From: an uncultured Fibrobacteraceae bacterium
Lineage (GTDB): Bacteria > Krumholzibacteriota > Krumholzibacteriia > LZORAL124-64-63
Length of the DNA stretch: 64,000 bases
NCBI GenBank assembly: GCA_964637835.1
Contig: CAZWYF010000007.1
Span: 7,486-71,485, forward strand
Direction: 5' to 3'
This document shows positions 11,237 to 62,648 of the stretch, piece after piece; within the stretch, counting starts at the first letter, position 1; every line of letters begins with the position of its first letter. A program made the translations under genes and the position numbers. The notes under the pieces were generated by a model that did not search any database, was not told the origin of the DNA, and worked only from the letters and a program-made list of their open reading frames with translations.

Positions 11237-12576
11237 TGGAGATCAACAGCGGCAACCTGGTCCTGGCCCGCGAGGCCAAGGGGGGCAAGGCGACCTCCGC
11301 GACCGACACCCCGACGGAGGGGGCCGGCGGGAAGACCGCCGATCCGTTCGCCGCGCTGCTCGCCCTGCTCGATCCCCCGCCTGCCGCGTCGCTGCTGGGC
11401 GGATCGATGGGCGAGCCTCCCGCTCAGAAGAACGCGGCGGGCGGGAACGCCGGCGCCGCTTCCGGGCCTCCGGGAGGCTCGCGCGGGGCGATGGTGCCGG
11501 ACCTGCTGAGCGGCCTGCTCGGCGGTCCGCCCGTCCCGGGATCCGGGCGGCCAGCCACCCCGGCGGGTTCCGATCCGGCGCTCCTGGCCGTCGTCCAGGC
11601 CAGCGCCGCGCGGGCGGGCCAGGCCGCGCCGTCACGTTCCACCGGGGCGGCGGCGACACCGACGGCCCCGGATCCACGCCCGATCGGCGGCATCCCCGGC
11701 GGCCTCGGCACCACCGCTCCGGCCGCCGCGGGCGCCGACGGCGGCAAGCCCGCACCTCCTGGCGCGAACACCGCGAACACGCTGGCGACGACGTCGGGGC
11801 CGATCCCCGATCCGGCCCCCACGCCTCCTGCCGACGGGCGGCAGCCGTCCACCGGGACCACTGCGCCCTTCGTCCCCGGCGGCCGACCGATCGCCGCGGC
11901 TGGCTGGCTCGGCATCAGTGCACCCGGCGACACGGAGAAGACGCCCGGGCGCGCTCCCCAGGCGCCCAGCACGTCACCGGCGTCCACCACGGATGCGGCG
12001 CCGGCCCAGGTCACGGCTGCCCCGTCGACCCCGACCACCACCGACCCGACCGCCGCCCTCGCGGCTGGCCTGCAGGTGACCACCGCAGGCCCGTCCGCCG
12101 CCACCGGTGCCCCCGGCGGCCTGCCCACCGGCCTGCTCGACGGCGCCCGGACCGGAGACAGCCCGGAGGCCACCGGTTCGCGCTACGCCGCGGAACCGGC
12201 CCACATCCGGGCGCAGGTGGTTCGCCAGCTGGCGGCCGAGAACGCCGCGCCCGGTCAGGCCCGCAACCTGACGTTGCGACTCGAGCCCGAGCACCTCGGC
12301 AAGGTGGAGGTCCGGATCACGGCCACCGATGACGGCCTGGAGGTGGTCTTCCGGGCCGAGACGGCCGCGGCCCAGGACGCGCTGCGCGACCGCTCCGGTG
12401 AGCTGGCCCGTGCGCTCGGCGCGGCCGATGCGCGCTGGCAGAAGGTGGAGATCAAGGTGAGCGAACCTGCAGGAAGCAGGTCCGATCCCGAGGAGCCCGA
12501 CGAGGACGGATCGCAGGATCAGCCCCGTCGCGACCAGCAGGAATCCCGCGATCGCCGCGACGGCGACGATCGCTAG
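11236..12576 (+). CDS. fliK: Flagellar hook-length control protein FliK
   Basis: Pro/Ala-rich disordered N-region. C-terminal Flg_hook domain LTLRLEPEHLGKVEVRITATDDGLEVVFRAET. Confidence 0.75.
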   Translation: MEINSGNLVLAREAKGGKATSATDTPTEGAGGKTADPFAALLALLDPPPAASLLGGSMGEPPAQKNAAGGNAGAASGPPGGSRGAMVPDLLSGLLGGPPVPGSGRPATPAGSDPALLAVVQASAARAGQAAPSRSTGAAATPTAPDPRPIGGIPGGLGTTAPAAAGADGGKPAPPGANTANTLATTSGPIPDPAPTPPADGRQPSTGTTAPFVPGGRPIAAAGWLGISAPGDTEKTPGRAPQAPSTSPASTTDAAPAQVTAAPSTPTTTDPTAALAAGLQVTTAGPSAATGAPGGLPTGLLDGARTGDSPEATGSRYAAEPAHIRAQVVRQLAAENAAPGQARNLTLRLEPEHLGKVEVRITATDDGLEVVFRAETAAAQDALRDRSGELARALGAADARWQKVEIKVSEPAGSRSDPEEPDEDGSQDQPRRDQQESRDRRDGDDR

Positions 12577-12591
12577 CGGAGAGGTCGTCCC

Positions 12592-31837: not shown

Positions 31838-31893
31838 CAGGAAGCAGAACTGGCTTGTCACACGACACCTTACCCCTGGTTAGCGAGGCAGAC

Positions 31894-32958
31894 ATGCAGG
31901 AGAACCGGTTCTGGCGGGTTCGCCGGGGCGCGAGTCTGTGCGCCCTGGTGTTGCTGTGCATGGGCGCGGACACCGCCCCGGCGGCCAAGTTCGCCGGCGC
32001 CTTCATGGAGAACGGCGGTGGCGCGCGGGCCCTGGGCATGGGCGGAGCGTTCACCGCCGTGGCCGATGACCCGTCCGCCACGTTCTGGAATCCGGCCGGC
32101 CTGGCCCGGACGCGCTCCCGGGAGCTGCTGGTCATGCACTCCGAGCGCTTCGGCGACCTGGTCGATCGCGACTTCGCCTCCTTCGTCACGCCCACGGACT
32201 GGTCGCTGCTCGGCGGCGAGGGTGGTGGTTTCGGCATCTCGCTGATCCGCCTGGGCGTCGACGACATCCCGTTCACCGAACACCTGGTGGACCAGCTCGA
32301 CATCGACGGCGACGGCCAGGTCGACGACGACGAGGTGGTCGGCATCCTCGAACCCGAGTTCCAGGACCAGATCCGCTTCAAGAGCGATCAGGAGTTCGCG
32401 CTCATGTTCTCTTACGGGGAGCGGCGGGGCCGCTGGCTGCTGGGCGGAAACCTGAAATTCATCCGGCAGAGCGTGGGCGACTACTCCAGCCTCGGCATCG
32501 GGGCCGATATCGGCGCCATCCGCCCGGCGATCTGGCGCAACCTGGACTTCGGGCTCAAGCTCCAGGACGTCACCACGACCTACCTCAGCTGGAGCACCGG
32601 CCACAACGAGGTGGTCTATCCGGCGGTGGTCCCGGGGTTCGCCTATCGCTGGCACCTGCCGGCCGCCCGCATGCAGCTCCTTCTGGCCTCGAGCTTCGAG
32701 ACCCGTTTCGAGAATCGCGGCGAGGCCGATCAGTGGTCCACCGGCGCCATCTCGGTCAACAGCCACTGGGGCCTGGAGGTGGGCTTCAGCCAGAAGGTCT
32801 TCGTCCGCGCGGGCCTCGACAGCGGCTTCGATACCGAGGACATCACCGCCGGCGCCGGTTTGTACCTCCACCCCCTGACCGTCGACTACGCCTATGCCGG
32901 CGACACCCTCGACATCGACGAGGTGACCCACCGCATCTCCCTCTCCGTGAGGTTCTAG
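31894..32958 (+). CDS. Outer-membrane beta-barrel protein (FadL/PorV-like family)
   Basis: Signal peptide. GMGGAFTAVADDPSATFWNPAGLA N-terminal motif. Alternating beta-strand pattern. C-terminal aromatic residue (VRF). Confidence 0.5.
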   Translation: MQENRFWRVRRGASLCALVLLCMGADTAPAAKFAGAFMENGGGARALGMGGAFTAVADDPSATFWNPAGLARTRSRELLVMHSERFGDLVDRDFASFVTPTDWSLLGGEGGGFGISLIRLGVDDIPFTEHLVDQLDIDGDGQVDDDEVVGILEPEFQDQIRFKSDQEFALMFSYGERRGRWLLGGNLKFIRQSVGDYSSLGIGADIGAIRPAIWRNLDFGLKLQDVTTTYLSWSTGHNEVVYPAVVPGFAYRWHLPAARMQLLLASSFETRFENRGEADQWSTGAISVNSHWGLEVGFSQKVFVRAGLDSGFDTEDITAGAGLYLHPLTVDYAYAGDTLDIDEVTHRISLSVRF

Positions 32959-32977
32959 CCGGCGATCCGGGGGGCTG

Positions 32978-33082
32978 GCGGCGGCCACCACCCTCTCATC
33001 CCGCATGTCCTCGCGAACGGGGAGCCTGGACGGCTCCCCGTTCTGCTGTGGAGTTGCGGGATGAGAGGGTGGTGGCCGCCGC
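32978..33082. terminator. Nested palindrome: 28-bp outer stem (gcggcggccaccaccctctcatcccgca / tgcgggatgagagggtggtggccgccgc) enclosing a 12-bp inner hairpin (gaacggggagcc-tggac-ggctccccgttc). Likely bidirectional terminator between convergent genes
   Basis: Perfect inverted repeats read directly. Located between the + strand OMP stop and the - strand mltD-like stop. Confidence 0.5.
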
Positions 33083-33101
33083 GGTCGCCGCGGTCTCCGG
33101 G

Positions 33102-34775
33102 CTAGGAGTTGGTGGGGGGCCGGTAGGCGGCGAGGCGCTGGCCGACCTGGAGGCGGCGCGGGTTGGTGATGCTGTTGACGCGCTCGAGGTGGGTGACGGA
33201 GACGCCGAGGCGGCGGGCGATGGCGCCGAGGGTGTCGCCCGGGCGCACGCGGTAGGTGATGCGCTCGTAGCCCTGGGGGGGGACGTAGCGTCCGGCGCGT
33301 TCGGCGCGGGCGCGGGCCTGCTCGGAGAGTTCCCGGGGCATGGGGACCAGGAGCTGGTCACCGGGATGGATGAGGCTGGAGCGGCCCAGGTTGTTGGCCT
33401 CCTGGATGGCGTGCACCGAGGTTCCCCAGGCCGTCGCGATGTGGCTGAGGGTCTCGCCCCGCTGCACCTGGTGCTTGCGCCAGGTCAACCGCCGGTCCGC
33501 CGGCACCTTGCGCAGCGCCACCTCGGCGGTCCCGGCCGTGCCGGCCGGCACGCGGACCGCGAAGTCGCGGGCGCCCGGCGGGGTGGCGCGGCGGAGCAGC
33601 GCGGGGTTCAGGTCGATGACGGTGGCGGGATCCACGCCGGCGCACGCGGCCACCAGGGAGAGGTCGGTGGCCTCGGCCACGGTGATCACGTCCCAGCCCA
33701 CGGGGGCCGGATCCGGCGTGGTGAAGCCATGGGCCTCCGGGTCGGCGCCGATCCGTGCGGCGGCGATGAACTTGGGGACGTACTCGACGGTCTGCCGGGG
33801 CAGTCGGTAGTCCCAGTAGTTGTCGTGCCCGTTGGCGCGCAGCTGCCGCCGGACGCGCCCCTCGCCGGCATTGTAGGCGGCGAGGACCAGCGCCCAGTCG
33901 CCGAACTCCGCGTACAGGTCGCCGAGATAGCCGGCGGCCGCGTCGGTGGCCTTCTCGAGGTCGCGCCGGTCGTCCCGCCACCAGTCGATGGTCAGGCCGT
34001 AGGCCCGTCCCGTCGCGGGCATGAACTGCCAGGGTCCCACCGCCCCGGCGCTCGAGCGCGCGCGCGTGCTCAGCCCGCTCTCGATCATGGCCAGGTAGAC
34101 CAGATCCGCTGGCAGGCCGTGCGCCGCCAGGCGCGTGGTGATCAGGGAATCGAGCTGTGCCTTGCGGTCCAGCCAGATCTGGAAGTAGCGGCGCCCGCGC
34201 CCGGTGAAGTAGTCCACCCACCGATCAACCTTGCCGTGCTGCACCTTGAGCAGATCCGCCTGCAGCGTGGGCAGGTGGGTCCCCGTGGCCGGGACCAGGG
34301 AGTCCGGGAAGCCCACCCCCTGCAGGCCGAGATACTCCGCTGTCAGGAGCGAGTCGGCCCGCGCGGGCGCGGCCGCGTAGGCGGATTGCTCGGCCAGCAG
34401 ACCCCCCAGGAGGGTGGTGCGGCGCAACAGGCTGCGACGATGCTGGAGGTAGAGGGTGTCGGCGTCGGCCGGCGCGGGTGCGCCGGCCCATTCCTGCATC
34501 ACGAACAGCCGGTCACGCGCATGGTCGAGCCGCCCCTCGGCCGCGGCGGCGAGCGCTTCGCGGTAGAGGATCTCCCACTGGTCGGGCGCCACGTCGCCAG
34601 CCGGGGGCTCCGGCCAGCGGGGCCCGAGATCGGGAACGGTGTCGGTGACCGCAAGGTCCAGCAACGTGACCGTGTCCGCGGGAGCGATGGCGGCGGGGTC
34701 GTCCTCGGGTGCAGGAACCCCACTGCAAGCAATGAGTTGAAGGATCAGGGCCAGCAGGGCGGCCAGGCCCGCCAT
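33102..34775 (-). CDS. mltD: Membrane-bound lytic murein transglycosylase D-like protein (SLT domain plus C-terminal LysM repeats), lipoprotein
   Basis: Lipobox LIACSG. SLT motifs LAMIESGLSTRARSSAGAVGPWQFMPATG...AYNAGEGRV. LysM segments (YRVRPGDTLGAIARRLGVSVTHLERVNSI; HQVQRGETLSHIATAWGTSVHAIQEANNL). Confidence 0.8.
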   Translation of the reverse strand: MAGLAALLALILQLIACSGVPAPEDDPAAIAPADTVTLLDLAVTDTVPDLGPRWPEPPAGDVAPDQWEILYREALAAAAEGRLDHARDRLFVMQEWAGAPAPADADTLYLQHRRSLLRRTTLLGGLLAEQSAYAAAPARADSLLTAEYLGLQGVGFPDSLVPATGTHLPTLQADLLKVQHGKVDRWVDYFTGRGRRYFQIWLDRKAQLDSLITTRLAAHGLPADLVYLAMIESGLSTRARSSAGAVGPWQFMPATGRAYGLTIDWWRDDRRDLEKATDAAAGYLGDLYAEFGDWALVLAAYNAGEGRVRRQLRANGHDNYWDYRLPRQTVEYVPKFIAAARIGADPEAHGFTTPDPAPVGWDVITVAEATDLSLVAACAGVDPATVIDLNPALLRRATPPGARDFAVRVPAGTAGTAEVALRKVPADRRLTWRKHQVQRGETLSHIATAWGTSVHAIQEANNLGRSSLIHPGDQLLVPMPRELSEQARARAERAGRYVPPQGYERITYRVRPGDTLGAIARRLGVSVTHLERVNSITNPRRLQVGQRLAAYRPPTNS

Positions 34776-35064
34776 GGCCGGCAGGCGGCGGGGATCGCAG
34801 CGGAGGGGCGTGAGCAAGGTGAGTCCTCCTTGACAGTCGAGCGCACGGTGGGAGAGTGTTCCCCTCCCGGCATCGTAGCAAGCACAGGGCCAGGATCGCA
34901 ACGCATCGCTCGGTCGGCCGCGGTGGTCGCGACGGTGGTCACGAAGATCGCGGATCGGCGTGCCCATGGCCGCGAATGGCTTCGGACGGCCGTCATCCGG
35001 CGATCTGTTCCGCGTCGGCCCCCCGCGGAGGCGGGACTGGCGAACGCGAGATGGAAAAGTCTGG

Positions 35065-40089: not shown

Positions 40090-41648
40090 AGCGCCGGGCG
40101 CTGCTGAGCGTCACGGACAAGTCGCACCTCGACCACGTGGCGTCCCTGCTGGCGAGTTACGACTACGAACTGCTCGCCTCCGGCGGCACCGCGGCCTGGC
40201 TCCGGGATCACGGCTTCGCCGTCACGGACGTCGAGACGGTCACCGGCTTCCCCGAGGTGTTCGGCGGGAGGGTCAAGACCCTGCACCCGCTCATCCATGG
40301 CGGGATCCTCGGTCCGACCCACGAGGAGTTCGCCGATCCGGGCCTGGCCCCGCTGGGCCTGGCCCCCATCGACGTGGTGGTGGTGAACCTCTACCGCTTC
40401 GAGGACGCCCTGGCCAGCGGCGCGTCCCCTGCCGAGCTCGTCGAGCAGATCGACATCGGCGGGCCGGCCATGCTGCGCGCGGCCGCCAAGAACCATCAGC
40501 GCGTCACGCTGCTCACCTCGCCGGAACAGTATGACGAGTTCCTGCACGAGTGCCGCGGCGGCGACGGGGTGCCGTCGGCCGCCTTCCGGCGCCGCTGCGC
40601 GCTGGCCGGTCTGCGGCTCACCGCCGCCTACGACGCCGCCATCGCCGCCTGGCTGGCCACGCAGGTCTCCGGCCATGCCGCCGAGGCCGCCGGGGCCGCG
40701 GACGTCGCCGAGGCGCCCACGCGGAGGGTCGTCCTGCGCTACGGGGAGAATCCCCATCAGGAGGCCGCCCTCGTGGTCCCCGAGCATCCGGACGGCGCCC
40801 TGGCCGGCGTCGGCCTGCAGCAGCACGGCGGCAAGGCCCTCAGCTACAACAACCTGGTGGACCTGGTGGCCGCCGTGAAGCTGGTCCTGGACACCGACGC
40901 GAGCTGCTGCGGCGTGATCAAGCACACCAACCCCTGCGGCTTCGGGCTGGGGGAGCCGGCCGCGGCGCTGGCGAAGGCCCTGATCTGCGACCCCGTCTCG
41001 GCCTTCGGCGGCATCGTCGCCTTCAACCGGGAGGTCGACCGGACCTGCGCCGAGGCGCTGGCCGGACGATTCCTGGAAGTGGTGGTGGCGCCTGGCTATT
41101 CCGACGACGCCCTCACGCGACTTCTCGAGCGTCGGAACCTCCGCGTCATGACCTGGGACCCGGCCGTGTTCCCGCCCGCCACCGCCGGCCGCTCCCGCCG
41201 GTGGGGTCGTCTGGTGCTGGAGCAGGAGGAGGATCGCGGGTTCCCCGAGCTGGCGGACTGGCGCGTGGTCGCCGGCGAGGAGCCCGGGCCGGCCACGCGG
41301 GACGACCTCGCCCTGGCCTGGACCGCCTGCAAGCATGGCAAGAGCAATGCCATCGTCCTTGCCCGCGACGGCGCCACCCTCGGCTGCGGATTCGGCCAGA
41401 TGAGCCGCGTGGACTCGGTGAAGCTGGCCGTGCGCAAGGCGAACGACCAGGGCCTGGACCTCGAGGGCTGCGTGGCGGCGAGCGACGGCTTCTTCCCGTT
41501 CCCCGACGGCGTGCAGGAGCTGGCCCGCGCCGGCGCCCGCTGGGTGATCGCTCCCGGCGGCTCCATCCGCGACGAGGAGGTGGCCGCCGCGGCCCGCGAG
41601 CTCGGCATCACCCTGATCCTCGCCTCGCGGCGGCACTTCAACCACTGA
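40086..41648 (+). CDS. purH: Bifunctional AICAR transformylase/IMP cyclohydrolase PurH
   Basis: GTG start overlapping the purC stop (GTGA). KRALLSVTDKSHL...VKTLHPLIHGGILG MGS-like domain plus AICARFT domain. Confidence 0.9.
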   Translation: MKRRALLSVTDKSHLDHVASLLASYDYELLASGGTAAWLRDHGFAVTDVETVTGFPEVFGGRVKTLHPLIHGGILGPTHEEFADPGLAPLGLAPIDVVVVNLYRFEDALASGASPAELVEQIDIGGPAMLRAAAKNHQRVTLLTSPEQYDEFLHECRGGDGVPSAAFRRRCALAGLRLTAAYDAAIAAWLATQVSGHAAEAAGAADVAEAPTRRVVLRYGENPHQEAALVVPEHPDGALAGVGLQQHGGKALSYNNLVDLVAAVKLVLDTDASCCGVIKHTNPCGFGLGEPAAALAKALICDPVSAFGGIVAFNREVDRTCAEALAGRFLEVVVAPGYSDDALTRLLERRNLRVMTWDPAVFPPATAGRSRRWGRLVLEQEEDRGFPELADWRVVAGEEPGPATRDDLALAWTACKHGKSNAIVLARDGATLGCGFGQMSRVDSVKLAVRKANDQGLDLEGCVAASDGFFPFPDGVQELARAGARWVIAPGGSIRDEEVAAAARELGITLILASRRHFNH

Positions 41649-41661
41649 CCAGGAGGCGGGC

Positions 41662-48359: not shown

Positions 48360-48952
48360 TCGGGGGGGCGCAGGACGGGCCCGCGGCCCAGCAACCCCTG
48401 CGCAACGCCATCCACGTGGCCACGGCCCTGGCCGCCGGCTGGGTGCTCCTGGTGCCGCGGCCCTGGGACCTGGCCGGCATCGCGGCCGTGCTGGTGGTCG
48501 TGGCCGCTGGCGACATCGGGCGCCTCCACGGCGGATTCCGATGCTGGCTGGAGGGCGTGCTGCCCGGTGTCTTCCGCTCCACCGAACTGCCCGGCGTCTC
48601 GGGAGGGACGCTGCTGCTGGTGGGGGACCTGCTCGCCGCCGTCCTCTTCTCGCCGGTCGCGGCGGCCGGCGGCATCGTCGCCCTGGCGGTGGGCGATCCG
48701 GCTGCCGCCGTGGCGGGCCGCTGGTACGGGGCCCGGCGCGGCCTCGCCGGGCAGAAGACCTGGTTCGGCTCGGTGGCCTGCTTCCTGGCCGCCCTGCCGT
48801 TCATCTGGCTGATCCCCGGCCTCGGCCTGCCCGCGGCGACCGCGGGGGCGGCCATGGCCGCCCTGGTGGAGCGCCGGGCCGGTCGCCTGGACAACCTGTT
48901 GCTGCCGGTGGCGGTGGCCATGCTCCTGGGCCTCTGGGCGCCGCGCGGCTGA
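48356..48952 (+). CDS. Integral membrane CTP-transferase-family (phytol/dolichol kinase- or CdsA-like) protein
   Basis: 198 aa. GDPAAAVAGRWYGARR...GQKTWFGSVACF resembles the C-terminal motif of polyprenol kinases and CDS enzymes. ATGA overlap with the slt stop. Confidence 0.4.
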   Translation: MIGGAQDGPAAQQPLRNAIHVATALAAGWVLLVPRPWDLAGIAAVLVVVAAGDIGRLHGGFRCWLEGVLPGVFRSTELPGVSGGTLLLVGDLLAAVLFSPVAAAGGIVALAVGDPAAAVAGRWYGARRGLAGQKTWFGSVACFLAALPFIWLIPGLGLPAATAGAAMAALVERRAGRLDNLLLPVAVAMLLGLWAPRG

Positions 48953-48985
48953 CCGCTGGCCGGGAACCTGGCCCCGGGCGTCCGG

Positions 48986-58536: not shown

Positions 58537-59907
58537 ATGGAGATCCGTGAGATCCGCCACCTCGACGGCGGCACCCAGCTGACCTGCCGCGAGGTCGTCG
58601 AGACCCTCGACCGCCACATCATCGGCCAGTACGAGGCCAAGCGCGCCGTGGCCATCGCCCTGCGCAACCGCTGGCGCCGCATGCGGTTGCCCGAGGCCGT
58701 GCGCAACGAGGTGGTGCCCAACAACATCATCCTCATCGGCCCCACCGGCGTGGGCAAGACCGAGATCGCCCGCCGCCTGGCGCAGATCGGCGGCCTGCCC
58801 TTCCTCAAGGTGGAGGCCACCAAGTTCACCGAGAAGGGCTACGTGGGCCGCGACGTGGACTCCATGGTGCGCGACCTGGTCGAGAACGCGGTGAACCTGG
58901 TGCGCTCGCGCAAGGAGGCCGCCGTCCGCGAGGAGATCGACCAGGCCGTGGAGGATCGCCTCACCGACCTGCTGTTCCCGCCCCTGCGCACCGACGCCGA
59001 GGATCCCGAGCGCCGCCAGCGCTGGGAGCGCAGCCGCGAGAAGGTGCGCGATCAGCTGCGGCAGGGCGTCCTGGAGGACCGCCGGGTCACCATCCGCAGC
59101 CAGCAGAGCAAGGTGCCGGTGGCCAACATCTTCACCTCGGCGGGCATGGACGTCGACCCGGGCTTCGAGGAGTCGCTCAAGAGCATGTTCCCCAAGCAGA
59201 CGGTGGAGAAGGACCTCACCGTCGTCCAGGCCCGCAAGCAGCTCCACGAGGAGGAGGTCAGCCGGCGCCTCGACGACGACCAGCTGGCCCAGGAGGCCCT
59301 CGAGCTCACCGAGCAGGGCGGCATCATCTTCGTCGACGAGATCGACAAGATCGCCGGCAAGGGCGGCGGCGGCGGCAGCGGCCCGGACATCAGCCGCGAG
59401 GGCGTCCAGCGCGACCTGCTGCCCATCGTCGAGGGCACCACCGTCTCGACCAAGTACGGGACGGTGCGCACCGACCACGTGCTCTTCGTGGCCGCGGGCG
59501 CCTTCCACATGAGCAAGCCCAGCGACATGATCCCCGAGCTGCAGGGCCGCTTCCCGGTGCGCGTGGAGCTGCGCAGCCTCACGGAGGAGGACTTCGTCCG
59601 CATCCTCCGCGACACCGACAGCTCCCTGCTCAAGCAGTACCAGGCCATCCTGGACGTGGATCAGTGCCAGCTGAAGTTCACCGAGGACAGCATCCTCGAG
59701 CTCGCGCGCATCGCCGCCGAGCTCAACAAGCGCCTCGAGAACATCGGCGCGCGCCGCCTGCAGACCATCCTCGCCCAGCTCCTGGACGACCTCCTGTTCG
59801 AGGTGCCGCACGCCATGACGGGGCCGTTCGAGGTCACGGCGGAGTTCGTGCGGGAGCGGCTGGCGCCCATCATCACCGACGAGGATCTCACTCGGTACAT
59901 CCTCTAG
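58537..59907 (+). CDS. hslU: ATP-dependent protease ATPase subunit HslU (ClpY)
   Basis: Walker A GPTGVGKTEIARRLA. I-domain. Sensor-2 region. 456 aa. Confidence 0.93.
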   Translation: MEIREIRHLDGGTQLTCREVVETLDRHIIGQYEAKRAVAIALRNRWRRMRLPEAVRNEVVPNNIILIGPTGVGKTEIARRLAQIGGLPFLKVEATKFTEKGYVGRDVDSMVRDLVENAVNLVRSRKEAAVREEIDQAVEDRLTDLLFPPLRTDAEDPERRQRWERSREKVRDQLRQGVLEDRRVTIRSQQSKVPVANIFTSAGMDVDPGFEESLKSMFPKQTVEKDLTVVQARKQLHEEEVSRRLDDDQLAQEALELTEQGGIIFVDEIDKIAGKGGGGGSGPDISREGVQRDLLPIVEGTTVSTKYGTVRTDHVLFVAAGAFHMSKPSDMIPELQGRFPVRVELRSLTEEDFVRILRDTDSSLLKQYQAILDVDQCQLKFTEDSILELARIAAELNKRLENIGARRLQTILAQLLDDLLFEVPHAMTGPFEVTAEFVRERLAPIITDEDLTRYIL

Positions 59908-59914
59908 GGTGGGC

Positions 59915-60028
59915 GGTGGGGCGGGGGGTGTTCCCCCTCGTCCGGGCTGGGTCCTCGCGTTGCGGCCCCTGGACGGGGCCGCTCGCTGCGGAGGCGCCCG
60001 GACGAGGGGGAACACCCCCCGCCCCACC
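59915..60028. terminator. Large hairpin 8 nt after the hslU stop: 33-bp perfect stem (ggtggggcggggggtgttccccctcgtccgggc / complement) enclosing a 48-nt core that contains its own ggcccc-tggac-ggggcc hairpin
   Basis: Perfect reverse-complement arms read directly. Likely factor-independent terminator or RNA-stability element. Confidence 0.5.
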
Positions 60029-60181
60029 TCGGCACCAGAGGGTACCGGGTGAGGGGAGTGGGGGGAGGGGGGGAGCGCGGCGGCGGGGTGGCGATCCGGA
60101 CGAGGATGGGAACGGAGCCTCGGCTCCTGGGTTCCTTCCACGGACCATCATCTCTCGGGCGTTCCCCTGCGGGTGAGGCGT

Positions 60182-60289
60182 GCGGCGGGGAGGTGGCGCC
60201 TCTCTGCGGGCGCCTCCGCAGCGAGCGGTCCCGTCCAGGGGCCGCGAAGCGAGGACCCAGCCCGCGGAGAGGCGCCACCTCCCCGCCGC
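60182..60289. repeat. Second large hairpin: 30-bp stem (1 mismatch) enclosing a 48-nt core that is the reverse complement (45/48) of the core in the first hairpin
   Basis: Arms gcggcggggaggtggcgcctctctgcgggc / gcccgcggagaggcgccacctccccgccgc. Loop gcctccgcagcgagcggtcccgtccaggggccgcgaagcgaggacccag. Confidence 0.5.
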
Positions 60290-60432
60290 CCCCGCCCGGA
60301 GTGGAATTCCCGCTCCCGGCGATTATCTTGGTCGAGCGAATCCCGCGGCCACCAGAGAGGCGCCGCGCCGATCCGAGTCACCCCGGAGGGCTGCCTGGGC
60401 CACGCCGGTCCCGCGACGGCCAGGAGGACGGA

Positions 60433-61350
60433 ATGACGCCGAGCAAGAAGGATTTCCTGCGGATCAACGATTTCTCGCTCGAGGAGTTGCGAGCGATTCT
60501 CGACCTCGCCCGCGAGCAGAAGCCGCTGGCGCGCAAGCACGAGCTGCCGCCATCGCATCCGGGCCGGCAGCTGGCCTGCGTGTTCGCCAAGCCGAGCCTG
60601 CGGACTCGCGTGAGCTTCGAGATCGCCATCCGGCAGCTGGGCGGCAACTCGCTCTTCATCACCGACAAGGAGATCGGGATGGGCACGCGGGAGTCGGTGA
60701 AGGACGTGGCGAAGGTCCTCAGCCGTTTCGTCGACGGCATCATGATCCGCTGGTTCGACCAGGGCGAGGTGGACGAACTGGCCGAGCACGCCACCGTCCC
60801 GGTGATCAACGGCCTGACCGACCTGCTGCATCCCTGCCAGGTGATGGCCGACATCATGACCGTCGAGGAGCACCTCGGCACCATCGACGACCGCAACGTG
60901 GTCATGGTCGGCGACGGCAACAACCTGGCCAACAGCTGGCTCAACGCCGCCTGCGTGTTCCCGTTCAACTTCACCCTGGCCTGCCCCGAGGGCTACGCGC
61001 CGGACGAGAGCATCCTGGCCGCGGCCGACCGCGCCGGCGCCAGCTTCCAGATCCTGCACGACCCCCTGGCCGCCGTGGAGGGCGCCCACGTCATCTACAG
61101 CGACGCCTTCTACAGCATGGGCCAGGAGGAGGAGGCCGCGAAGCGGCGGCGCGACTTCGCGCCCTTCCGCCTGACCACCGAGCTGCTGGCCATGGCGGAC
61201 AAGGAGCACATCGTCCTGCACTGCCTGCCTGCACACCGCGGCGAGGAGATCACCGACGAGGTGATGGACGGTCCGCATAGCGTGGTCTACGATGAGGCCG
61301 AGAATCGGATGCACGCCCAGCGCGCCATCCTGGCCCACTTCATGAAGTAG
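60433..61350 (+). CDS. argF: Ornithine carbamoyltransferase
   Basis: SLRTRVSFE (carbamoyl-phosphate site). HPCQ, DAFYSMG and HCLPAHRGEE motifs are OTCase-type. RBS caggagg 5 nt upstream. Confidence 0.85.
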   Translation: MTPSKKDFLRINDFSLEELRAILDLAREQKPLARKHELPPSHPGRQLACVFAKPSLRTRVSFEIAIRQLGGNSLFITDKEIGMGTRESVKDVAKVLSRFVDGIMIRWFDQGEVDELAEHATVPVINGLTDLLHPCQVMADIMTVEEHLGTIDDRNVVMVGDGNNLANSWLNAACVFPFNFTLACPEGYAPDESILAAADRAGASFQILHDPLAAVEGAHVIYSDAFYSMGQEEEAAKRRRDFAPFRLTTELLAMADKEHIVLHCLPAHRGEEITDEVMDGPHSVVYDEAENRMHAQRAILAHFMK

Positions 61351-61412
61351 GAGACGCCCTGCGCCCGACGGCACGGCAGCACCGGCGGCACCTGGCGAGC
61401 GGGGCCTGGCTC

Positions 61413-62648
61413 ATGAGCCTGGCCCTGCTCGCCGCTTGCGCCCAGCCCCTGCCGCCCCCGGGCGGCCCGGTGGACGAGACGCCGCCACACCTGGTGGCCG
61501 TCACCCCGGACAGCGGCAGCACGGGCCACGGCGCCCTCGATCGCGTCCGCATCGCCTTCAGCGAGAAGATGGAACGGACGGATGCCTACCGCTGGCTCGC
61601 CGTCTTTCCCGACCGCAAGATCCGCGACACGGACTGGAGCGGCGCCCGGGTGGCGACCGTGGAGTTCGAGGAGCCGCTGCCGGCCGACACGGTGGTGGTC
61701 CTGGAGGTCAAGCCGGGGATGAAGGACTCTCACGGCGTTCCCCAGCCACGGGGGCGCATCCTGGTCTTCGCCACCGGCGACACCATCGCCGACGGATCCA
61801 TCGGCGGCGGGGTGATCCTCGACGAGCAGCCCCTGGCCGGCGCGGTCGTCGAGCTGTTGCCCGCCGGCCCCGACTCCGTCCGGCTGGTGCAGCGCCCGGT
61901 CCTGCGCCGCGCCGTGGCCGACAGCGCCGGCATCTGGAAGCTGAGCTGGCTGCCCGCCGGGGGAGAGGCCTGGCTGCTGCGTGCCTATGACGACCGCAAC
62001 GCGGATCGCCGCCCCGCCGAGAGCGAGGCCCAGCGGGTGTTCCCCGACACCTTCCGCCTGCGTCCGGACCGGCGCACGCTCGACGTGGGGCTGCTGACGC
62101 TGTACCGACCGGACACGCCCGGCACCCTGGAGGGCGAACTGGACCAGCGCCCGCCGGTCGACGCGCCCGTGTTCGCCTTCACCCTGGCCATCGCCGAGGA
62201 GGACACCGGGTACGTTCCGGAGCCCGACGCGGCCAACGCGCCACCGGCGCAAGCGGTGCCCGATACCGGCCGCTTCACCCTGACCGGGGTCGGCCCGGGC
62301 CTGGTCCGCGCGGTGTTCTTCGCGGACCTCGATGGCGACAGCCTCTTCAGCGCCGTGGGCGACACCGCCGACACCGTCTGGACCCTCGAGCCCTGGGCGC
62401 TGGTGGACAGCCTCACCGTCGAGCCCGGCCTGCCCACCCCGAGCCCGTCGCCGGTCTGGCCCGACACGCTCACGCCGTGGCCGGCCCCCGCGCGGCCCGA
62501 CACCGTCGCCGCGCCCGACACCGCCGCCGTCGCCGGACCAGACAGCGGGACCGTCGCCGCGCCCGACACCGCCGCCGTCGCCCCCGCCGACACCCTCGAG
62601 GCCGGCACGCCGCTCCCCGATGCCAGGCCCGAAAGGGAGGAGCCATGA
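61413..62648 (+). CDS. Hypothetical lipoprotein (Ig-like/SbsA-like N-region; Pro/Asp/Thr/Ala tandem-repeat C-terminus)
   Basis: Lipobox LLAACAQ. GC3-biased codon usage. No catalytic motifs. Confidence 0.5.
   Translation: MSLALLAACAQPLPPPGGPVDETPPHLVAVTPDSGSTGHGALDRVRIAFSEKMERTDAYRWLAVFPDRKIRDTDWSGARVATVEFEEPLPADTVVVLEVKPGMKDSHGVPQPRGRILVFATGDTIADGSIGGGVILDEQPLAGAVVELLPAGPDSVRLVQRPVLRRAVADSAGIWKLSWLPAGGEAWLLRAYDDRNADRRPAESEAQRVFPDTFRLRPDRRTLDVGLLTLYRPDTPGTLEGELDQRPPVDAPVFAFTLAIAEEDTGYVPEPDAANAPPAQAVPDTGRFTLTGVGPGLVRAVFFADLDGDSLFSAVGDTADTVWTLEPWALVDSLTVEPGLPTPSPSPVWPDTLTPWPAPARPDTVAAPDTAAVAGPDSGTVAAPDTAAVAPADTLEAGTPLPDARPEREEP
62505..62582 (+). repeat. Tandem direct repeat (30-nt exact unit gtcgccgcgcccgacaccgccgccgtcgcc twice, 48-nt period) encoding a VAAPDTAAVA peptide repeat
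   Basis: Exact duplication read directly inside the lipoprotein gene. Confidence 0.5.

Follow-up and report, generated by a model that had tools for sequence, protein, structure and literature searches.

Several classes of small palindromic elements have been described from the intergenic DNA of bacteria. REP, BIME, and REPIN sequences are extragenic palindromes located at gene 3' ends, where their hairpins can stop read-through or exonucleases; the copies of a REP agree in the sequence of the short stem and vary in the loop or linker, and a genome contains hundreds of them, tied to a RAYT gene. ERIC (IRU) and Correia (NEMIS) elements are imperfect palindromes of 100-150 bp that lie in transcribed intergenic DNA in either orientation. 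Their long hairpins are RNase-processed or alter mRNA stability and termination, and they are conserved over their full length, terminal repeats included, with Correia elements duplicating a TA target. Invertons, such as fimS and those of Bacteroides, are phase-variable segments, typically hundreds of bp long, that possess a promoter inside and a dedicated invertase. At the level of mutation, two studies describe template switching as a process that homogenizes the arms of inverted repeats, makes multi-base compensatory changes, and inverts loops (PMC8604942; PMC8794818). Here, we describe long intergenic hairpins that, judged by sequence comparison, belong to a repeat family not described before, which occurs in a small group of uncultured, Krumholzibacteria-like bacteria.

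The window, by which we mean the whole stretch of DNA that was analyzed (64,000 nucleotides, ~72% G+C), contains mostly a flagellar gene cluster plus housekeeping genes, and the names of the best homologues of its proteins point to Candidatus Krumholzibacteriota/-ia MAGs. The cluster extends from 4591 to 27557, almost entirely on the + strand (flgB/C-type rod genes, fliE/F/G, fliI/J, flgD/E, motA/B, fliL/M/N/P/R, flhB/A, and a sigma factor gene), and three gaps in our crude, GC3-based gene map (11237-12591, 40090-41661, and 48360-48985) are probably missed genes, not intergenic DNA. By gene map, the original prediction was roughly right that most intergenic gaps are short. A 525-nt spacer separates hslU (58537-59907, + strand; NCBIfam TIGR00390, E = 1e-173), the last gene of a xerC-hslV-hslU unit, from argF, the ornithine carbamoyltransferase gene (60433-61350, + strand; NCBIfam NF001986, E = 9.6e-124). 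Eight nt past the hslU stop codon begins a first long hairpin, el1 (59915-60028, + strand), whose 33-nt arms (59915-59947 and 59996-60028) are 100% complementary and flank a 48-nt tip, or apex, that reads in the sense orientation on the + strand (59948-59995). The second hairpin, el2 (60182-60289, - strand), has 30-nt arms (60182-60211 and 60260-60289) that are 97% complementary, with one mismatch, around a 48-nt tip at 60212-60259 whose sense lies on the - strand. Both hairpins had been predicted, and an inverted-repeat search confirms them: a 33-bp perfect stem around a 48-nt core in the first, and a 30-bp stem with a single mismatch around the inverted core in the second. The cores are identical at 45 of 48 positions when one is read as the reverse complement of the other, such that the el2 tip, differing at 3/48 positions, is flipped relative to the el1 tip. 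The two elements are further linked by an 85-nt inverted repeat with 82% identity (59943-60027 and 60180-60264).

Predicted folding energies place both hairpins far from shuffled sequence (el1, -116 kcal/mol, z = -11.4; el2, -104 kcal/mol, z = -11.9), and the fold of the entire spacer has a z of -8.6. Because the spacer has two inverted copies of one repeat, an alternative core-to-core fold is available to it: the minimum-energy structure pairs hairpin 1 with hairpin 2 (96 pairs, -374.9 kcal/mol), compared with -362.1 kcal/mol for the two local hairpins. The core-to-core pairing put forward in the original prediction is therefore real in silico, and with the two folds only 12.8 kcal/mol apart and the spacer located upstream of argF, one could suppose, as that prediction did, an argF leader acting as an attenuator or riboswitch, in which the mutually exclusive folds set argF expression. 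Comparison with relatives leaves this reading barely credible. Downstream of hairpin 2, and outside of the repeat as defined by alignment to hairpin-less relatives, lies a promoter-like block followed by a leader with a ribosome binding site (60298-60432, + strand). The block consists of GTGGAAT (60301-60307), a 16-nt spacer, and TATCTT (60324-60329), and in four genomes the same order is found, GTGGAAT-N16-TATCTT, then GGCTGCCTGG and CCYGCGACGGCC, then AGGAG (window 60298-60432; L021 11413-11544; L024 10105-10221; L081 60-201). Conservation suggests that GTGGAAT-N16-TATCTT is probably the argF promoter, and the leader downstream of this putative promoter is probably structured.

The relatives L021, L022, L023, and L024 were found through HslU, with nucleotide identity given relative to the window. 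No hairpin precedes argF in L021 (83%), where the hslU-argF spacer is 176 bp, in L024 (74%), where it is 162 bp, or in the 201 nt preceding argF in L081, whose contig starts there and is silent on an el2 orthologue. In the first ~60 nt of that contig, ahead of its own argF promoter block, the sequence looks like a stretch from within the argF coding region (...GTCTTCGCCAAGCCCAGCCTGCGG...), which is due either to a duplication at this locus or to chimeric assembly of the contig's end. The promoter-like block and leader are thus common to genomes that lack the hairpins, a member of the same family sits between unrelated convergent genes elsewhere in the window (described below), and Rfam offers no match, all of which count against an argF leader. 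The window aligns to the hairpin-less spacers of L021, L024, and L081 only from ~60298, ~10 nt past el2, which places a ~390-bp hairpin block after the stop codon of hslU and ahead of the putative argF promoter; on the evidence of this alignment, the block is a lineage-specific addition. When the empty L021 and L024 spacers were aligned to the inserted block, as ancestral targets from which the arms might derive, they scored no better than shuffles, leaving that origin of the arms unsupported.

Closer relatives carry the block. L022 (92%) possesses a complete el1 and the segment that follows it before its contig ends (1650), and L023 (90%) possesses the start of el1 before its contig ends inside the core (1901). 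Both contigs thus stop inside or just after the hairpin region, and short-read assembly probably fails at this spacer because of the inverted core copies, which may explain these contig ends. An assembly artefact as the source of the elements themselves was rejected, as they recur in independent NCBI, JGI, and Logan assemblies.

The original prediction had also considered a core that occurs only in the hslU-argF spacer. This is not the case, as a diverged third copy, el3 (32955-33105, + strand), fills the gap between two convergent genes, 31855-32958 (+) and 33102-34967 (-); no other gene pair in the window is convergent. Apart from the LysM/SLT gene on the right-hand side of el3 (33102-34967), the window has essentially no clear - strand gene. 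el3 is the sole other long inverted repeat in the window, with a perfect stem (32978-33005 and 33055-33082), a tip at 33006-33054, a centre sequence of TGTCCTCGCGAACGGGGAGCCTGGACGGCTCCCCGTTCTGCTGTGGAGT, and a fold of -124.6 kcal/mol (z = -12.5); its arms are unrelated to those of el1 and el2.

What the three copies share is the tip. Three blocks are common to el1, el2, and el3, namely TCCTCGC, CCTGGACGG (with the loop TGGAC), and GCTG(C/T)GGAG, while the inner stems between them differ entirely yet remain complementary (GCGGCCCC/GGGGCCGC in el1, GGGGCGCC/GGCGCCCC in the L022 orthologue, and GGGGAGCC/GGCTCCCC in el3). All copies share one fold. Its base is the long outer stem, above which a small internal loop, asymmetric in shape, leads to a UCC:GGA helix of 3 bp; next come a CGC:GC(U)G helix in which the U is bulged, an inner stem of 8-12 bp, and a 5-nt loop. 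The tip can accordingly be written as an asymmetric pattern of 48-49 nt, TG(GG)-TCCTCGC-N3-4-[8-12-bp covarying inner stem]-loop TGGAC-...-GCTG(C/T)GGAG. The outer stem has 26-33 perfect bp, or up to 56 bp when imperfect pairing is included, and its sequence is locus-specific. Whole elements are ~100-150 bp long, intergenic, and found at gene 3' ends.

A covariance model, R1, built from el3 orthologues only, scores el3 at 115 bits, el1 at 59.3 bits, and el2 at 50.8 bits (- strand). With filters off, R1 finds nothing besides these three above 22 bits in the 64-kb window, and its application to ~111 kb of relatives' loci yields no new copy. A search for perfect stems of 16 bp or more with loops no longer than 80 nt, covering the window and ~95 kb of DNA from relatives, returns family members only, and the known copies are three in 64 kb, plus orthologues. 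The best non-family R1 match, at 22 bits, is a 26-nt overlapping palindrome at 61393-61434, between argF and the next gene (encoding a Big_5-domain protein), which looks like an ordinary terminator-type hairpin.

Searches outside of these loci covered several collections. Scanning the window with Rfam 15, as the original prediction had proposed for a known RNA family, gave no match at gathering score and only sub-threshold look-alikes of miRNA precursors. No family relative was found in plasmids and phages by blastn or in viral contigs with a relaxed pattern. A scan of a genome collection with the central mini-hairpin GCGGCCCCTGGACGGGNCCGC returned 20 matches with 24-31/48 identity to the core; these were rejected as family members and are unrelated terminator-like hairpins, GCGGCCCCTGGACGGGNCCGC being a poor probe because the inner stem varies between copies. 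A metagenome scan with a fixed-spacing core returned nothing, since the L022 core has a 1-nt insertion. Allowing variable gaps, a scan of JGI metagenomes returned 50 matches, of which only L041, on the same contig as L022, is real; this pattern demanded TCGCTGCGG, so that el3-type cores were invisible to it. Given that only the orthologous L022 locus was recovered, the el1-type core is not highly repeated in the JGI metagenome collection of L022.

A coding function for the tip was likewise rejected. A 19-codon open reading frame (ATG...TGA; MSSRTGSLDGSPFCCGVAG) at 33004-33063 spans the el3 tip, but el1 and el2 lack its start codon and have a shifted frame, and by eye its stop codon is lost in L077 and L078, two of the el3 orthologues.

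Between el1 and el2, the 153-nt middle segment (60029-60181, + strand) folds as an imperfect long hairpin. Positions 60046-60093 directly repeat sequence from el2, namely its 5' flank and outer arm; the segment's CCGGACGAGGATGGGAAC matches the inner arm of el1, and it further contains a degenerate tip-like hairpin, GAACGGAGCCTCGGCTCC, and G-rich, arm-like pieces. The match to the el3 tip is weak (score 23 against a shuffle mean of 15.2, with 6/500 shuffles reaching the score). We tentatively assign the segment as probably a decayed copy of the family, which would be the third element of the spacer and give a cluster of el1, decayed-copy candidate, and el2 in alternating orientation. Two runs on the + strand, 59908-59930 (GGGTGGGCGGTGGGGCGGGGGG) and 60046-60093 (GGGTGAGGGGAGTGGGGGGAGGGGGGG), are G-rich and could form G-quadruplexes that compete with the hairpin arms.

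To compare the arms across genomes, we used four el3 orthologues, L075, which is the window genome in its Logan assembly, L076, L077, and L078, with 44 pairs and hence 176 pair cells. The site is defined by the LysM/SLT transglycosylase gene on one side and a gene of 354-367 aa on the other. All 44 pairs are Watson-Crick in all four orthologues, with G-U pairs in 0/176 cells, and while half of the pairs (22/44) have changed on both sides, none has changed on one side only. In control alignments, 0/500 shuffles reach these values, and partner columns slid out of register are ~47% paired. This perfect pairing is retained although the 26-bp arms differ between orthologues at up to ~40% of positions. 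The arms of el1 and el2 give a similar picture, with 12 pairs altered on both sides, one altered on a single side, and the other 17 unchanged. Two pair flips separate the inner stem of el1 from that of its L022 orthologue, the L022 stem being fully Watson-Crick.

The tip behaves in the opposite manner. Across the four el3 orthologues it is nearly invariant: three inner-stem pairs have changed, each with compensation, and one further position is T or C. Among el1, el2, and el3, whose arms are unrelated or ~40% diverged, the tip is the conserved part. The conserved 5' and 3' blocks of the tip are variably spaced, 41 nt apart in el1 and 45 nt in el3, while the inner stem, counted from the small helices up to its loop, keeps a length of about 12 steps; together these fit a hairpin and not a double-stranded DNA site of fixed spacing. 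Given that the unpaired residues and the two small helices are invariant while the adjacent intergenic DNA cannot be aligned, the folded tip appears to be under purifying selection.

Conserved loops and bulges on covarying helices are what would be expected of a structured RNA selected at the RNA level, for example as a protein-binding 3'-UTR module or an RNase III site, with the palindrome as a mere consequence. The elements lie in likely transcribed regions, directly past stop codons, and the two G-T mismatches carried by el2 are both G-U wobbles on the + strand, further points in favor of an RNA. Nonetheless, we consider this explanation unlikely. The absence of G-U pairs from all el3 pair cells, together with the fully Watson-Crick stems of el1 and its L022 orthologue, is not what selection on RNA typically leaves behind. 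Orthologues differ in the orientation of the tip, as do el1 and el2, so that a given transcript often carries the antisense tip, and if the tip works as RNA, the el2 orientation is 'wrong' for + strand transcripts. No promoter was found for a free-standing RNA, and there is no Rfam match. Of the structured noncoding RNA proposed in the original prediction, therefore, the strongly maintained structure stands and such an RNA is possible, but the pattern of maintenance points to DNA: no G-U pairs, both strands equally perfect, and a tip inverted between genomes. The missing G-U intermediates, the multi-base compensatory changes, and the inversion of the spacer between the arms argue for a process at the DNA level rather than for RNA-level selection alone.

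The inversion is seen when the el3 loci are compared with the LysM/SLT gene set on the + strand, as the tip is antisense in L075, and likewise in the window, and sense in L076, L077, and L078. The imperfect outer parts of the L075 and L076 arms align better collinearly (scores 27+31) than crosswise (22+24), which indicates that the breakpoints lie within the perfect arms and that the centre has flipped. The el1 and el2 tips show the same inverted relationship. With both orientations present and each tip bounded by long perfect inverted repeats, and with a xerC-type tyrosine recombinase gene 2 kb upstream of el1, a programmed flip-flop comes to mind, in which a recombinase or co-opted template switching inverts the tip and thereby sets which transcript bears the sense tip. 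We judge this to be quite improbable. A single flip explains the el3 tree and no flip is seen among three el1 orthologues, so flipping looks rare and occasional, not rapid. The xerC-hslV-hslU unit is also present in the hairpin-less relatives, and no recombinase gene adjoins el3. A segment of 48 bp is too short for looping of double-stranded DNA, and there is no promoter-like site inside the tip, where a promoter scan finds neither a sigma-54 nor a sigma-70 promoter and the spacing is, by eye, unfit for either.

At the el3 site, presence tracks relatedness. el3 is present in L076, L077, and L078, with LysM identities of 90%, 81%, and 80%, and absent from L079 and L080 (73% and 67%), each of which has a short ordinary terminator hairpin in its place; by overall identity, it is present down to ~78% and missing at ~75-76% (L079 and L080). 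Small, palindromic, exclusively intergenic elements that are variably present among relatives, and that in the hslU-argF spacer form a cluster of alternating orientation, could be a classical MITE or REP, moved in trans by a transposase that recognizes the terminal inverted repeats. The evidence makes such an origin highly improbable. Copies differ by ~40% in their arms and agree in the internal core, which reverses the pattern of a MITE or REP. Of the conserved terminal inverted repeats and target-site duplication that characterize MITEs, neither was found here; no flanking direct repeats adjoin the stems. Furthermore, no transposase, RAYT, or element-specific recombinase gene was found in the scanned open reading frames of the 64-kb window. 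Of the readings in the original prediction, the miniature mobile or REP element nevertheless comes closest, given the diverged third copy and the variable presence of the block, whereas its MITE-like terminal inverted repeats were the wrong picture, because the conserved part is the loop-side core and not the arms.

The explanation that we favor, with moderate confidence, is that these are lineage-restricted palindromic intergenic elements whose arms and tip are subject to template switching and which probably serve as hairpins at transcript 3' ends. Under this model, intra-hairpin template switching or inter-arm recombination during replication would keep the arms complementary at the DNA level, and the same events would occasionally flip the tip. 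The tip itself would be under purifying selection as a folded single strand, either as RNA or as single-stranded DNA at the replication fork, and would be recognized by some factor. Once transcribed, a hairpin of ~-100 kcal/mol may provide a 3'-end structure, be it a terminator, a read-through barrier or insulator, or a block to exonucleases, and in the hslU-argF spacer such a hairpin would separate hslU from argF. That the element probably acts as a hairpin at transcript 3' ends is suggested by the location of el1 directly after a stop codon, by the replacement of a plain terminator hairpin by el3, and by analogy to REP, ERIC, and Correia elements. el1 and el2 are not canonical intrinsic terminators, because no U-tract follows the hairpins: there is no T-run after either arm, and a terminator scan finds 0 sites in 59700-60700. 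Terminators with a U-tract are rare across the 72% G+C window.

A bolder extension of the favored explanation is that the elements are recombinase-independent toggles, in which template switching flips an asymmetric, protein-binding tip and thereby chooses the transcript that carries the sense tip. We give this idea very little weight, but if it is true, an uncultured phylum would possess a new way of regulating its mRNA 3' ends heritably and reversibly. The changes seen here would be an unusually clean natural case in which template switching has kept a helix of 30 bp perfect and turned a 48-nt loop around, in ordinary bacterial operons. If the tip binds a factor, the family would also open a new way into the biology of mRNA 3' ends in a phylum that lacks a cultured model. 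The motif can be searched for in Krumholzibacteria-like MAGs, and it serves as a caution to annotators that such spacers are not riboswitches.

Among known systems, the hairpins described in the template-switch studies have the same perfect Watson-Crick stems, compensatory changes, and loop inversion as the elements reported here (PMC8794818; PMC8604942). Those loop inversions mostly concern loops of ~4 nt, in contrast to the 48-nt module found here, and the studies treat a mutational mechanism and not an element family, which explains neither the conservation of the 48-nt tip nor the appearance of copies at new loci. With invertons, the family shares a segment that lies between inverted repeats and occurs in both orientations, here between genomes, but the segment is 48 bp and comes with no promoter-like site and no element-specific recombinase. 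With canonical intrinsic terminators, it shares the GC-rich hairpin but not the U-tract. ERIC and Correia elements resemble it in size, intergenic position, and long hairpin fold, and differ in that this family conserves nothing but its tip and shows no duplicated target. REP, BIME, and REPIN sequences resemble it in their extragenic location at 3' ends, in their occurrence singly or as a cluster of alternating orientation, and in a presence that varies between relatives, and differ in that here the stems are locus-specific while the 48-nt tip is conserved. The elements are therefore REP-, ERIC-, and Correia-like in niche and likely effect and opposite to them in conservation pattern: conserved stems are the defining feature of REP, ERIC, and Correia elements, whereas the family described here is defined by a conserved tip on stems that are changeable yet perfect.
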